This document shows positions 39,386 to 54,329 of a DNA stretch of 64,000 bases, one piece after another. Below the pieces are notes generated by a model. It searched no databases, was not told where the DNA came from, and saw only the letters and a list, made by a program, of their open reading frames with translations. The stretch covers positions 864,001 through 928,000 of the forward strand of contig OY970195.1 of the NCBI GenBank assembly GCA_963708185.1, given 5' to 3'. Made by a program: the position numbers and the translations under genes. Each line of letters starts with the position of its first letter. Positions within the stretch are counted from its first letter, which is position 1. Source of the DNA: Candidatus Peregrinibacteria bacterium. Its GTDB lineage: Bacteria; Patescibacteriota; Gracilibacteria; UBA1369.

Positions 39386-40381
39386 ATGTTCTGGACATTC
39401 TTTTTCTTCATTCTGGGTCTTGCGGTTCTCCTCAAAGGGTCGGAGTTCCTTATTGACGGAAGCGCGGGCCTCGCGAAAAGATTTCGGATCTCTCCTTTTA
39501 TTGTGGGGATCACCATTGTTGCGCTCGGAACGAGTCTGCCGGAACTTTTTGTGAGTATCCTTGCGGCTCTCAAACAGGAGAGCGGTCTTGTCATCGGAAA
39601 TATCGTGGGAAGCAACATTGCCAATATTGCTCTTATTCCAGGGATCTCCGCAATGATACGTCCTTTGCGTTTTGATAATCCAAAAATTGTACGCTACGAG
39701 ATTCCTTACGTTATTCTGGCAGGATTAGTGCTGTTTTTGCTTGGTTTCGATGAGGTGTTCCAAAACCACGGACTGCCCGTCATCAACAGCCTCACACTGG
39801 GAGATGGGCTTATTATGTTGCTCTTTTTTACCATCTTTATTTTTTATATCTTCGGAAATCTTAAAATCGGCAAAGCGCTTGAATCACAGGCCGAACGGAA
39901 AGAGAAAATAACCGGGAAGGAACCTCTTTCCAAACTGATTTTCTTACTTATCGGCGGTCTTTTGGCAGCTGTCGGAGGAGGAAAACTCGTTGTCGATAAT
40001 GCCGTGAGCATTGCCCAGTTCCTCGGAGTCAGTGAAACGACGATCGGTCTGACCATCGTGGCTATGGGCACTTCCCTGCCTGATATTTCCGCTTCGGTTA
40101 TCGCGGTCGCCAAAAAACGAGAGGATATCGGCATTGGCAATCTCATCGGCAGCAACGTCATCAATGTTTTCCTGGTTCTCGGCCTAACCACATTCATTAC
40201 CCAGCTTACACTCGGGACATTTGAACTGTTCGACGTATTTTTTATGATCGGCCTGAGTATTTTACTCTTCCTGTTTGCCTATTTCCGTAAACAGCTCACC
40301 AAGATCTCAGGCGTCACCTTCCTTATCTTGTATGTCGTGTACATTATTTTCGTCCTTTACCGTGACGTCGCGTTGAAATAG
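39386..40381 (+). CDS. Calcium/sodium antiporter (CaCA, YrbG-like)
   Basis: Two alpha-repeats: GTSLPE/GSNIAN and GTSLPD/GSNVIN. Confidence 0.93.
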   Translation: MFWTFFFFILGLAVLLKGSEFLIDGSAGLAKRFRISPFIVGITIVALGTSLPELFVSILAALKQESGLVIGNIVGSNIANIALIPGISAMIRPLRFDNPKIVRYEIPYVILAGLVLFLLGFDEVFQNHGLPVINSLTLGDGLIMLLFFTIFIFYIFGNLKIGKALESQAERKEKITGKEPLSKLIFLLIGGLLAAVGGGKLVVDNAVSIAQFLGVSETTIGLTIVAMGTSLPDISASVIAVAKKREDIGIGNLIGSNVINVFLVLGLTTFITQLTLGTFELFDVFFMIGLSILLFLFAYFRKQLTKISGVTFLILYVVYIIFVLYRDVALK

Positions 40382-41117
40382 GACGCCGTTTCATAACAGC
40401 AGGATAGAGCGGTTCGTAAAGGCACTGTTCAACCGGCATAACCGGTTCGAGAGGGCTTGTTTTGCCATTGGAGAAGATGACCGGAGCGTTGGTGATCAGC
40501 ACAAAAGGGGTCTGCTCGTCAGACTGCCCCATGAGATAGTTGGCAAGCCCGGCGAGGCTGTCGGCGACAGCTTCCTGGGTGAAATTCAACTTGTTTCCGT
40601 AAAGGTCGTGCGATCCTCTTTTATCTTCGACTCCTTTGAATCCCGAATAACCCAATGCTATTCCTGACACGCCTTTTCGTAGTGGCACACAAAATGAATC
40701 GACGATGACCACTCCGAGTTGCTTGAGTTTCAGATGTTTTTTCAGGTGATTTCTTATTGCCGCCGCGGCCTTGAACGGTTCTTTGGGCCAAAGGATGGCG
40801 CGGCCGCTTTGAATGTTGGACTGGTCGATGCCGGCCCAGGGCGTAAAAATATGATTTTTGAGTGTTAACTGGACCTTGTTGCTGCCGAAAATCTTGTCCG
40901 CTTCGCTCTTTACGGCTTTTTCCAGATCTTTGTGAAAGTTGAGTTTGATGATTCTTCCTTGGGTAATGGCCAGAACCTTGGAACTTACCGCCAGTACGGT
41001 TTTTTCTTTGATCTTTTTCCGTTTCAGCACGCTGGCAAGGAGCCGAATCAGATCCGTTTTTTCCGTAATAATTTCCGATTTCACCGCTTCTGCTTCAAGT
41101 TTTTTCGTTTTTTGCAT
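40344..41117 (-). CDS. CofE-like (F420-0:gamma-glutamyl ligase family) protein
   Basis: VSSKVLAITQG, AGIDQSN, D(S)...PLRKGVSGIALG and DLYG..L..T.EAVADSLA motifs. Confidence 0.85.
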   Translation of the reverse strand: MQKTKKLEAEAVKSEIITEKTDLIRLLASVLKRKKIKEKTVLAVSSKVLAITQGRIIKLNFHKDLEKAVKSEADKIFGSNKVQLTLKNHIFTPWAGIDQSNIQSGRAILWPKEPFKAAAAIRNHLKKHLKLKQLGVVIVDSFCVPLRKGVSGIALGYSGFKGVEDKRGSHDLYGNKLNFTQEAVADSLAGLANYLMGQSDEQTPFVLITNAPVIFSNGKTSPLEPVMPVEQCLYEPLYPAVMKRRPISTRRHGKGRK

Positions 41118-41172
41118 TTTTGGCAGTAATATTGTTTTATAATAATTATATTAATGTGTCCATTACAGTTTG

Positions 41173-41201
41173 TTGACCACGACATTGCACTTTGCTATCA
41201 T
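41173..41201 (+). promoter_or_regulatory. Sigma70-type promoter facing a non-coding region
   Basis: TTGACC-17 bp-TATCAT with an extended -10 TG. Confidence 0.6.
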
Positions 41202-41241
41202 GATCTGAACATTCAAGATTTGATAGTAACGATGAGATTAT

Positions 41242-41607
41242 GTCACCCCCGAATCGATTTTCGGAAGGGGTGACCAACTGACCACAAGGACCTTTGACAG
41301 CCAGACTATATCAGAACCGAGAGGGTTGAGCGACCATCACTTCCGCTTTAGCGGGACAAGGTCCCTCCACCTTCTCTGCTCTGTGATGGCCCCCACTGAC
41401 CAACCGGGCCGACCCTCCAGCTGCCTGGTGACTCCTGTTAACCTTCGGGTTCTTGCAGTCACGCCAACAGGCGATCTTTGGCAAGATTGAAAACTTACGC
41501 CAAAACACAGCAGGATTAAACGGACTTTCTGGTCAATTGTCTACAAACACAAACAAATTCCACAAACAAAAACTCTCGAGCCGTAACTTTATTTTCTTTA
41601 TTTTACG
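41242..41607 (+). ncRNA. Unassigned structured RNA candidate
   Basis: Nested helices including a long closing stem 41275-41297/41516-41539 and a C(UUCG)G tetraloop at 41443-41448; no credible ORF; flanked by a promoter and a terminator. Confidence 0.55.
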
Positions 41608-41628
41608 GCCGCTAGATCAGGAATTTTC

Positions 41629-41655
41629 CCCCCGTACCACGTACGGGGTTTTTTT
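41629..41655 (+). terminator. Intrinsic terminator
   Basis: CCCCGTAC-CAC-GTACGGGG followed by TTTTTTT. Confidence 0.85.
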
Positions 41656-41680
41656 ATGCCCGGATGGCTGTACCAAAAAA

Positions 41681-41757
41681 AGAGCTCCCTTTCGGGATGG
41701 ATCCCGAGCAGGCTTAGCACCTCGCTCATCGGGGTTCAATCCCCCGCGGCTCCACCA
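41681..41757 (+). other. tRNA-like element / tmRNA- or tRNA-Ala-like 3' end
   Basis: Perfect T-arm CGGGG-TTCAATC-CCCCG followed by CGGCTCC-A-CCA; the 5' part is non-canonical. Confidence 0.55.
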
Positions 41758-42623
41758 TCAGCGTTTGAAATATCTACCCCCACCGAACCCCGAAGACGAA
41801 GGTAACGGTGGGCATCAGCAGGATTAGCGTAGTCCAAGTAGACCTGACCATTGCCCCAACCACCGTACGCAACAAGAGAAGATTCTGTCAAGTTCTTACC
41901 GTTGAGGACTGATAAGGTTTTTGGATCAACAGGTTTGCCTTCCGCCAGAGCTTTCATCATTAAAGTCAGATAGGCGTCTGCTCCTTCCATAACATCTAAG
42001 CCCATGTCTTCATATTTTTTCACCCAGAGTTTGCTCATTTCATAATTTGTTCTCTTGCCATCGTAAATTTCGGTATCGCGTTCAACATCTTGAACACCGT
42101 CAACGATTGAAACCCTCCATTTGTTTTCTGTCTTGGACTTTCCGCCATTCCAAAGAGCGTTATCTTTGAGGTCATAGGTGTACGTATCAGCCTTTTGACC
42201 TTTTGCAGGATACTTATTGATAGCCTCAACCTTAGATTGACGGGTTGTCGGTGGAACCAGGAGTAAAGTAGGTTCGGCAAGTTTGAGAGCTTTCTCAAGA
42301 ACTTCAGGAGAAAGGCCTTTCTTCACCTGCTCCCAGGTGGGAGCACCATCAGTTGAAATTTCGTAATGTTCCAGCACGGATTTCATTTTTGGATATTGCG
42401 CTTCGAGGTTCTCTAAAAGTTCCGCTTCCGGAAGTTCAAGATTTTCTCCTCCAATGAGTTCTTTGGCGTGTGTTCGAAAAACACCCTGCGTTTTGTTTTC
42501 GGTTGCGCGGCGCAGGTTTTCCACGGCTTTTTCTTCAACGGGCTGCTCCGGATTTTTTGGTTTACGCTTAAGTTTTTCAGACAGTTTTTCGGTATGATGC
42601 GCGAGTTTGCGGATGATTCCCAT
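41736..42623 (-). CDS. Hypothetical protein with DGR-variable-region-like (C-type-lectin fold) C-terminus
   Basis: C-terminal VAYGGWGNGQVYLDYANPADAHRYLRLRGSV with NNY-biased codons. Confidence 0.6.
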   Translation of the reverse strand: MGIIRKLAHHTEKLSEKLKRKPKNPEQPVEEKAVENLRRATENKTQGVFRTHAKELIGGENLELPEAELLENLEAQYPKMKSVLEHYEISTDGAPTWEQVKKGLSPEVLEKALKLAEPTLLLVPPTTRQSKVEAINKYPAKGQKADTYTYDLKDNALWNGGKSKTENKWRVSIVDGVQDVERDTEIYDGKRTNYEMSKLWVKKYEDMGLDVMEGADAYLTLMMKALAEGKPVDPKTLSVLNGKNLTESSLVAYGGWGNGQVYLDYANPADAHRYLRLRGSVGVDISNADGGAAGD

Positions 42624-54253: not shown

Positions 54254-54329
54254 GCCACTTTAGCTCAGCTGGTAGAGCAATGCTTTCGTAAAGCAGAGGT
54301 CTCGGGTTCGATTCCCGAAAGTGGCTCCA
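54254..54329 (+). tRNA. tRNA-Thr (anticodon CGT)
   Basis: GCCACTT/AAGTGGC acceptor stem, D-arm, loop TTCGTAA, TTCGATT T-loop and encoded CCA; 76 nt. Confidence 0.97.

Follow-up and report, generated by a model that had tools for sequence, protein, structure and literature searches.

A probable new family of structured non-coding RNA in one class of Patescibacteria, with a possible role as a decoy of mRNA leaders

Positions 41173 to 41655 of a 64,000-nt stretch of a Candidatus Peregrinibacteria genome (GCA_963708185.1, contig OY970195.1, 864,001 to 928,000; the whole stretch is hereafter the window) carry a promoter, a terminator and no credible open reading frame (ORF) between them, which raises the question of whether an RNA gene lies here and, if so, of what kind. 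The initial annotation read the locus as a transcription unit for a multi-helix RNA that could be either a divergent 6S RNA or a new class of non-coding RNA (ncRNA). Comparison with homologous loci shows 41208-41655 on the + strand to be a stand-alone gene for a structured ncRNA of ~448 nt, and this RNA almost certainly represents a real and new family.

The promoter first proposed (TTGACC, a 17-nt spacer and TATCAT) is present, with a TG extension (Table 1); it is of the sigma-70 type with an extended -10 element. Its geometry, TTGAC-N13/14-TTTGnTAnnAT-N4-TGA, is kept in 23 of the 25 type-A homologues examined (types A and B being the two paralogues described below), and for the other two (L016 and L048) the 270-nt excerpt began inside the promoter. 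Transcription would start near 41207-41209, at an invariant TGA, giving a predicted transcript of 41208-41655 (+); the predicted type-A transcripts span 370-512 nt. The strong terminator of the initial annotation, a G+C-rich stem-loop followed by seven T, occupies the equivalent place in the aligned homologues. ORFs that overlap the gene are all short (39-124 aa), and the indels among homologues are not multiples of three, in keeping with the lack of a credible ORF. A scan of a 1.2-kb stretch found two promoter-like sites (1.7 +/- 1.6 in shuffled sequences) and one terminator (1.4 +/- 1.3 in shuffles); since these counts do not stand out from shuffles, the scan alone is no proof of a transcription unit. 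Folding gave a + strand of 41208-41655 that is more stable than shuffles (z = -4.15), and the same holds for the - strand (z = -3.69), so fold stability cannot fix the strand.

The argument for a gene rests on its homologues. A blastn query with 41150-41800 had matches in 15 of 40 related genomes. Within the genus, each of the four genomes matches query positions 1-510 at 82-84%, and in other genera the alignment begins only from ~41363 onwards. Conserved in the alignments are the promoter, the first transcribed bases (TGAA), the 5' region, a core of ~170 nt, a G-free A/C-rich tract, a 3' hairpin domain and the terminator; the sequence 3' of the terminator differs between genomes. A degenerate pattern taken from the most conserved block matched 20 contigs in a collection of species representatives, titled Candidatus Peribacteria, Peregrinibacteria, Gracilibacteria, Patescibacteria group, or simply 'bacterium'. 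Two covariance models extended the search: R1, built from the core alignment, and R2, built from 46 copies of both types. R1 matched 83 of the 151 genomes in a sample of the order, including 21 of the 22 in the window's own family, and 31 of those 83 hold two full-length matches. From a sample of the class, R1 matched 13 of 151 genomes and R2 matched 33 of 151, the latter reaching other orders (families f28, 11/13; f43, 3/7; f25, 3/15; f36, 2/7). R2 left whole families of the class sample negative (e.g., f26, 0/15; f29, 0/14; f34, 0/12), which may reflect divergence beyond the reach of the model rather than absence. Across a phylum sample, R2 matched 4 of 151 genomes, all inside the class, and none of the 143 from other classes. 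As far as these models detect, the family therefore appears to be confined to one class of Patescibacteria, a phylum of the Candidate Phyla Radiation (CPR).

The window's genome itself encodes a second, diverged copy (G000:C1:5252-5425, corresponding to L084:1453-1626), which scores 79.3 bits with R1 and 107.1 bits with R2 and has its core, A/C tracts, GGAAUUU and terminator arranged as in the window copy. Elements of this paralogue include a separate promoter-like TATGAT...TGAAAC, a pair of A/C-rich tracts and a pair of terminators, and it lies between a gene for a DnaQ-like exonuclease/helicase and a gene for an S-layer homology (SLH)-domain protein, its flanks being divergently and convergently oriented. 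The two copies are far apart in this genome. Some other genomes of the class carry both copies 3-6 kb apart on the same strand (G040:C2:49465-52373; G052:C1:90543-93466; G268:C35:21470-27322).

The fold of the core was derived from 24 sequences aligned with MAFFT over 41370-41538 (alignment A1), on which a structure was written from visible covariation and then counted. Standard pairs are formed by 96.5% of the 1046 cells in A1, compared with 34-39% when the partners are slid by 1-3 columns, and 18 of the 44 pairs change on both sides versus 9.5 in shuffles (0 of 500 shuffles reached 18), these shuffle controls overstating significance because the genomes are related. RNAalifold, run independently on 14 sequences, recovers H1, H2, the arm and the 3' hairpins. 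For 37 further, more divergent copies pulled in by R1, 93.1% of cells pair (30-41% in slid controls) and double changes are seen in 33 of 34 pairs, in an alignment that was fitted to the model and so leans towards its structure. Given the model-fitted alignment and the kinship of the genomes, we take the covariation as strong indications rather than as probabilities.

The core that emerges from this comparison is a four-helix junction (H1, H2, H4/H5 and H6) locked by a loop-loop contact between H2 and H8, with 5' and 3' domains on its flanks. The closing helix H1 is invariant in type A, and in the divergent set four of its five pairs and all three extension pairs change on both sides. H2 varies already within A1 (pair 21-40 is CG in 11, UA in 11 and UG in 2 of the 24 sequences), and in the divergent set both partners vary at all six of its pairs. 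The arm capped by C(UUCG)G, which the initial annotation had drawn at 41423-41472, holds and covaries; it carries a bulge, GCCAA, on its 3' side (41463-67). For H6, pair 116-129 is GC in 20 sequences and AU in 4, and the divergent set has double changes at five of five pairs. The H8 stem is 74% paired, with four of six pairs changed on both sides. UGACCA in the H2 loop pairs with UGGUCA downstream, as in pair 33-178 (CG in 13, UA in 8 and UG in 3 of 24 sequences); the UGAC/GUCA part of the contact is nearly universal across 46 copies, and next to it 33 of the 42 copies in which both motifs were located have a standard pair. Because UGGUCA sits in the H8 loop, the contact with the H2 loop is a loop-loop contact. 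Invariant positions account for 52 of the 187 columns of A1, and the junction strands are highly invariant.

These pairings displace about half of the helices that the initial annotation had listed: the arm and the 5' hairpin stand, and four others do not. Single-sequence minimum free energy folding reproduces the long stem 41275-97/41516-39, and comparison refutes it: its TGACCA/TGGTCA part is paired at 6/6, 5/6, 2/6 and 0/6 positions in the four genomes of the genus, and TGGTCA finds a full 6/6 partner in the H2 loop (41397-41402) of all four genomes, with covariation beyond the genus. Across the same four genomes, GCCAGA/TTTGGC forms 6, 5, 4 and 4 of 6 pairs, GAGGGTTG/CGACCCTC forms 8, 5, 7 and 7 of 8, and CCATCAC/GTGATGG forms 7, 3, 3 and 5 of 7; all three decay without compensation and clash with covarying helices, and the local hairpin P0 takes their place. 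G-U pairs are frequent throughout the core, and the pair formed by columns 115 and 130 is GU in 24 of 24 sequences and would be an A-C mismatch on the other strand, which identifies the + strand as the functional one.

Table 1. Coordinates of the elements of the RNA gene, as positions in the window.
Feature	Position	Strand	Elements
Promoter	41173-41201	+	-35 TTGACC 41173-78; spacer 17 nt; TG extension 41193-94; -10 TATCAT 41196-41201
5' hairpin	41242-41274	+	GUCACCCC/GGGGUGAC; conserved apical motif CGAAUCnAUUUUCGG
Single-stranded motif CCUUUGA(A/C)A(A/G)C	41291-41300	+	5' domain; conserved in alignments
P0, long local hairpin	41319-41376	+	GAGAGGGUUGAGCGACC 41319-35/GGUCCCUCCACCUUCUC 41360-76; variable tip including CCGC/GCGG 41343-46/41351-54
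H1, closing helix	41375-41514	+	UCUGC 41375-79/GCAGG 41510-14; extension UGU 41382-84/ACA 41505-07
H2, hairpin	41387-41411	+	UGGCCC/GGGCCG (41387-92/41406-11); loop 41393-41405 with UGACCA 41397-41402
Arm	41423-41472	+	H4 41423-27/41468-72; H5 41428-33/41457-62; H5b 41440-43/41448-51; UUCG cap
H6, hairpin	41473-41488	+	GAUCU/AGAUU (41473-77/41484-88)
H8, hairpin	41522-41542	+	GGAC 41522-25/GUCU 41539-42; loop with UGGUCA 41530-35
G-free A/C-rich tract	41543-41573	+	ACAAACACAAACAAAUUCCACAAACAAAAAC; window copy's version of the family motif AAAACAAAAAYAAA
3' domain	41555-41626	+	P9 AAAUUCC 41555-61/GGAAUUU 41620-26, enclosing P10
P10	41574-41616	+	AGCCGU 41579-84/ACGGCC 41605-10; UCU 41574-76/AGA 41614-16
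Intrinsic terminator	41630-41655	+	CCCCGUAC-CAC-GUACGGGG, then U7; stem-loop 41630-48

The 5' hairpin, which folds in the window as first drawn, is present in many homologues and not all, with stem sequences that vary between genera; the L022/L044/L051/L052 and L045/L072/L075/L078 groups have a shortened hairpin or none. In P0, GAGAGGG/CCUUCUC pairs at 7/7, 6/7, 7/7 and 7/7 positions in the four genomes of the genus, and in other genera its complementarity is near-complete as judged by eye. The 3' domain is 86.2% paired, versus 29-50% for slid partners, and eight of its pairs change on both sides versus 6.1 in shuffles (73 of 500 shuffles reach eight), so that comparison gives moderate support to the 3' fold, with which it is compatible.

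Does this RNA belong to a family already described? No Rfam 15 family reaches its gathering score within 41000-41900, and at E <= 10 the same region returns chance-level matches only, mostly on the terminator. Nor does any family match the window copy, the paralogue copy or 30 homologous loci; sub-threshold matches on 20 paralogue loci are limited to the terminator tail and name no consistent family. The literature searched on ncRNAs of CPR/Patescibacteria, with subscription-only papers and supplements outside the search, yielded no description of such an RNA. Rfam comparison, homologue search and covariation analysis, all put forward in the initial annotation, thus returned no family match, an array of homologues and pairs that covary, and of the two identities that it had offered, the new ncRNA class is the one supported.

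The initial annotation had also seen no signatures of ribonuclease P (RNase P) RNA, of domain IV of signal recognition particle (SRP) RNA or of transfer-messenger RNA (tmRNA), and no model for these RNAs matches the gene. The closed 1.437-Mb genome encodes a canonical tmRNA elsewhere (C1:1209539-1209952, 123.6 bits with RF00023), along with a canonical A-type RNase P RNA (C1:185828-186179, 175.6 bits with RF00010) and a 5S rRNA; RF00010, including its conserved CR-I and CR-V regions, has no match in the region, and ARAGORN finds no tmRNA in the window. The sole RNA gene recognized by Rfam or ARAGORN in the 64-kb window is a tRNA-Thr (CGT) at 54254-54329. A resemblance of AGAAAGTCCG on the - strand to RNase P RNA, considered as an antisense gene, was rejected as chance, there being no model match and the G-U pairs fixing the + strand. 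SRP RNA (RF00169 and RF01854, small and large) is found neither in the region at E <= 10 nor in the genome, and RF00169 finds none in 41 related genomes. The closed genome has no true match to SRP_SPB (PF02978) or to the SRP54-type GTPase domain (PF00448), and neither Ffh nor FtsY is detectable in it; a six-frame scan found no protein with a DTAGR-type GTPase signature. Among the 41 relatives, PF00448 gives only P-loop matches of ~20 bits, none of them true. At E <= 1e-10 it matches 0 of 151 class genomes and 0 of 151 phylum genomes, counts that rest on a first-look filter, to which the phylum-wide zero may partly be due; the independent check covers the window's genome. PMC8080830 states that Vampirococcus, like many CPR bacteria, lacks the two SRP subunits. 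Without Ffh or FtsY, an SRP RNA would have no partner protein, and this identity is ruled out.

Sequencing runs offer hints of expression. All 22 listed runs contain only small shares (0.04-0.07) of the sampled words. Two RNA-library runs (X2 and X3, of equal size and possibly one data set) gave a 197-nt contig covering 41445-41638 at 95-99% likeness, an RNA run from another study (X4) gave a 221-nt contig covering 41390-41609 at under 90% likeness, and a run of unrecorded type gave a 248-nt contig covering 41384-41617. The contigs of the three RNA-library runs are confined to this RNA and end at 41638 and 41609. Short contigs confined in this way hint at an abundant transcript in close relatives.

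What the RNA does is a harder question, for which the A/C-rich tract provides a lead. A-triplets in the tract are invariant in 20 of 20 aligned sequences. Scored strictly, as A{2,}[CT]A{3,}[CT]A{2,} (AAAACAAAAAYAAA-type, 14 nt, G-free), the family motif occurs 64 times in sense versus twice in antisense orientation in 39 type-B or distant RNA regions, and 21 times versus once in 25 type-A RNAs; family members thereby stand ~40-fold above the genome background of 0.05 per kb. Its position varies by member: it may occupy the 5' domain, the 3' tail, the loop at the tip of the arm or the linker that follows H8. A comparable signal is found at gene starts. Long ORFs of the genome show no enrichment of Shine-Dalgarno (SD) sequences upstream (GGAG in 2% of the -20..-1 regions), and G is depleted to 10-17% at -20..-1 before starts. 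The decamer AAACAAAAAC, which occurs 39 times in the genome versus ~1.5 expected, often lies a few bases before start codons and is a candidate leader element independent of SD. The motif has 145 copies in the genome, and 21 of them fall within the 1-44 nt that precede the first ATG of an ORF of 150 codons or more, compared with 3.3% of random positions and 6 of 111 copies of a G-containing control motif, the enrichment being approximate since the gene starts are crude (the first ATG of long ORFs).

On this basis, we tentatively propose, at roughly one chance in three, that the RNA is a trans-acting scaffold of an abundant ribonucleoprotein (RNP), specifically a decoy that mimics SD-less mRNA leaders. 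The folded core would hold out one to four copies of the G-free AAAACAAAAAYAAA motif, which would also be present just upstream of start codons in this SD-less genome; with the motif both in the RNA and before start codons, the reader of such leaders, be it the 30S subunit/S1 or a leader-binding regulator, would be titrated by the RNA. Titration of this kind is familiar from other bacteria, in which CrcZ titrates Hfq, CsrB titrates CsrA and 6S RNA titrates RNA polymerase. Like the CrcZ and CsrB-RsmZ sponges, the RNA is several hundred nt long and stands alone between a strong promoter and a terminator, and the family would display several copies of a short, presumably single-stranded motif that is also found at the initiation regions of mRNAs. 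The A-rich motifs of CrcZ are A-A-N triplets, and the family motif could be read in the same way. Unlike these sponges, the RNA has a large invariant pseudoknotted core, and the motifs of the window copy are only degenerate; the CrcZ model (RF01675) reaches just 15-18 bits, against a gathering score of 95, on 2 of 20 paralogue loci and solely in the 3' tail, and no Hfq, LSM or other known partner was found in the genome.

Several observations weigh against the decoy. The window copy has zero strict motif matches, the tract being degenerate, and Hfq (PF17209), LSM (PF01423) and Rho, considered as partners of the A/C tracts, were rejected because none was found in the genome. A scaffold that served only to display motifs would not need so invariant a junction, and the core may have an activity of its own, for instance in catalysis or in the binding of a ligand. 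Selection simply for staying unpaired can also produce linkers that are A/C-rich and G-free. The RNA-library contigs, at a depth of 2-3, are no proof of transcription or of transcript ends, and the cautions attached above to the divergent alignment, the shuffle controls and the crude gene starts apply here as well.

The strongest competitor, itself no better than a possibility of about the second rank, turns the argument around: the conserved core would be the active part, as an RNP component, an architectural RNA or a ribozyme in the manner of OLE, ROOL, GOLLD or raiA, and the A/C tracts would be mere linkers. The highly invariant junction strands (52 of 187 columns), the complex fold with its loop-loop contact, the stand-alone gene with its synteny kept and the absence of a strict A/C motif from the window copy all suit this explanation, which leaves unexplained a 14-nt sense-strand motif found at varied positions and ~40 times background. 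OLE, ROOL, GOLLD and raiA resemble the present RNA in having a complex covarying fold, restriction to a single lineage, no tie to a downstream gene and no assigned mechanism; the CPR host, the two-paralogue pattern and the repeated A/C motif set it apart. The Rfam search gave no match of OLE, GOLLD, ROOL, raiA or HEARO to the region, their models being, we assume, in the Rfam library.

Less likely again is a stand-alone sensor of a ligand or signal, in which a riboswitch-like aptamer core would use alternative pairings to control its own 3' domain or an activity in trans. Aptamers typically show such a topology, in which a multi-helix junction is combined with contact of a core loop with the loop of a hairpin further downstream, and two sets of alternative pairings could serve as a switch. 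In most type-A copies, CUCUGCU has two possible partners, an upstream AGCAGAG, with which it would extend P0, and a downstream AGCAGRR, with which it forms H1; and the H6 loop UUGGC could instead pair with GCCAA at 41499-41503 (H7, which shows no compensatory change), making H6 and H7 mutually exclusive. Yet the two competing CUCUGCU strands are separate segments in paralogue B, so that their overlap in type A may be an accident of deletion. No same-orientation gene follows either copy in the window's genome, the terminator has no evident anti-terminator and no Rfam riboswitch family matches. A cobalamin riboswitch, which was considered and rejected, is similar in topology only, having a multi-helix junction and an internal hairpin loop that contacts the loop of a 3' hairpin. 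Short strings such as CCACUG and ACUGUAA may also be common to the two. In Rfam, no Cobalamin or AdoCbl-variant model matches at E <= 10; there is no B12 box to be seen and no regulated gene downstream.

The divergent 6S RNA of the initial annotation, which would sequester the sigma-70 holoenzyme by mimicking an open promoter, is now improbable. RF00013 matches nowhere in the closed genome (E <= 0.001), which would leave room for a diverged form, and the strong promoter and two paralogues would be in keeping with it, Bacillus having two 6S RNAs. The present RNA further resembles 6S RNA in being stand-alone, possibly abundant and of housekeeping type, sometimes with two paralogues, and may likewise use molecular mimicry. 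However, the fold supported by covariation is a branched junction with a tertiary contact and not a long rod with a central bubble, RF00013 fails to match the region at a threshold as loose as E <= 10, and the RNA, at 370-512 nt, is 2-3 times as long as 6S RNA (~180 nt).

Still less credible is an mRNA or dual-function RNA for a small peptide that begins at AUG 41240 in the region of the 5' hairpin. Many homologues do keep AUG(AUG)CC...CGAAUCnAUUUUYGG, which would read M(M)P-x-(P/S)-N-x-F-x-(E/D/G), but the frame stops after three codons in L019 and L021, the segment is missing in the L022/L044/L051 group, neither the length nor the remaining sequence is conserved, and the same bases form the hairpin; the small ORF was rejected as not conserved. 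Least probable of all is a divergent SRP RNA or other universal RNA (tmRNA, RNase P RNA) missed by the models, since the failure to find an SRP RNA here or in the relatives and the tRNA-like T-arm and CCA just downstream (41704-41758) are outweighed by the lack of an Ffh M domain, an SRP54-type GTPase or a DTAGR-type protein, by the tmRNA and RNase P RNA genes elsewhere and by the absence of the tRNA-like piece from every homologue.

The surroundings of the gene are conserved in part. Its neighbours encode an F420_ligase-family protein, PurN, a Na/Ca exchanger and two MscS proteins. Of the 39 loci examined, 25 have the F420_ligase-family gene upstream of copy A in the opposite orientation, and 19-21 have MscS genes on the downstream side. 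A functional link to these neighbours was considered and set aside: they are conserved in position, yet hint at no function. Immediately 5' of the -35 box, GTCCATTACAG at 41158-41168 is conserved across genera and reads cTGTAATGGAC on the opposite strand; it could serve as the -10 region for the divergent F420_ligase-family gene (40344-41117, -) or as a regulator site common to both promoters.

Directly 3' of the RNA terminator, a tRNA-like 3' half (T-arm, acceptor strand and CCA) is present at 41704-41758. It scores 15.8 bits as tmRNA, is ~80% like C1:101554-101598 and is conserved in no homologue. A tmRNA, whether one-piece, split or permuted, was considered on account of the 3'-end-like GGGGTTCAATCCCCCGCGGCTCCACCA at 41731-41758 and rejected, given 15.8 bits with RF00023 there versus 123.6 at the real gene, no ARAGORN prediction, a location beyond the terminator, its absence from all homologues and its resemblance to the tRNA 3' half at C1:101554-101598. 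The same piece overlaps the end of a 295-aa ORF (41736-42623, -) that has no Pfam family and is present only in the window's genome among the 39 loci, and 41772-42425 has a second copy, 92.7% identical, at C1:1306034-1306687. The region between the RNA gene and the MscS genes looks like an insertion or integration scar.

CPR/Patescibacteria make up a large share of bacterial diversity, and to our knowledge almost nothing is known of their ncRNAs. The RNA described here is large and complex in fold, has very strong comparative support and a conserved, near-consensus promoter, occurs across a lineage, often as two paralogues, and is not captured by Rfam; RNAs with such properties, among them RNase P RNA, tmRNA, 6S RNA and riboswitches, have time and again emerged as central machines or regulators. 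The present RNA is probably a so far undescribed part of the core cell machinery of CPR bacteria. With the alignments and the two covariance models, searches for the family can start immediately. A bolder version of the decoy reading, which we regard as a long shot, is that of a class-wide, usually duplicated housekeeping RNA acting as a '6S RNA for the ribosome': a rigid pseudoknotted core would present mimics of SD-less leaders (AAAACAAAAAYAAA), capture the 30S subunit or a recruiting factor and so set global translation capacity. If true, this would be how that capacity is set in organisms without SD pairing, SRP, Hfq or Rho, and the repeated leader-like motif provides a testable handle on the control of SD-less translation initiation.

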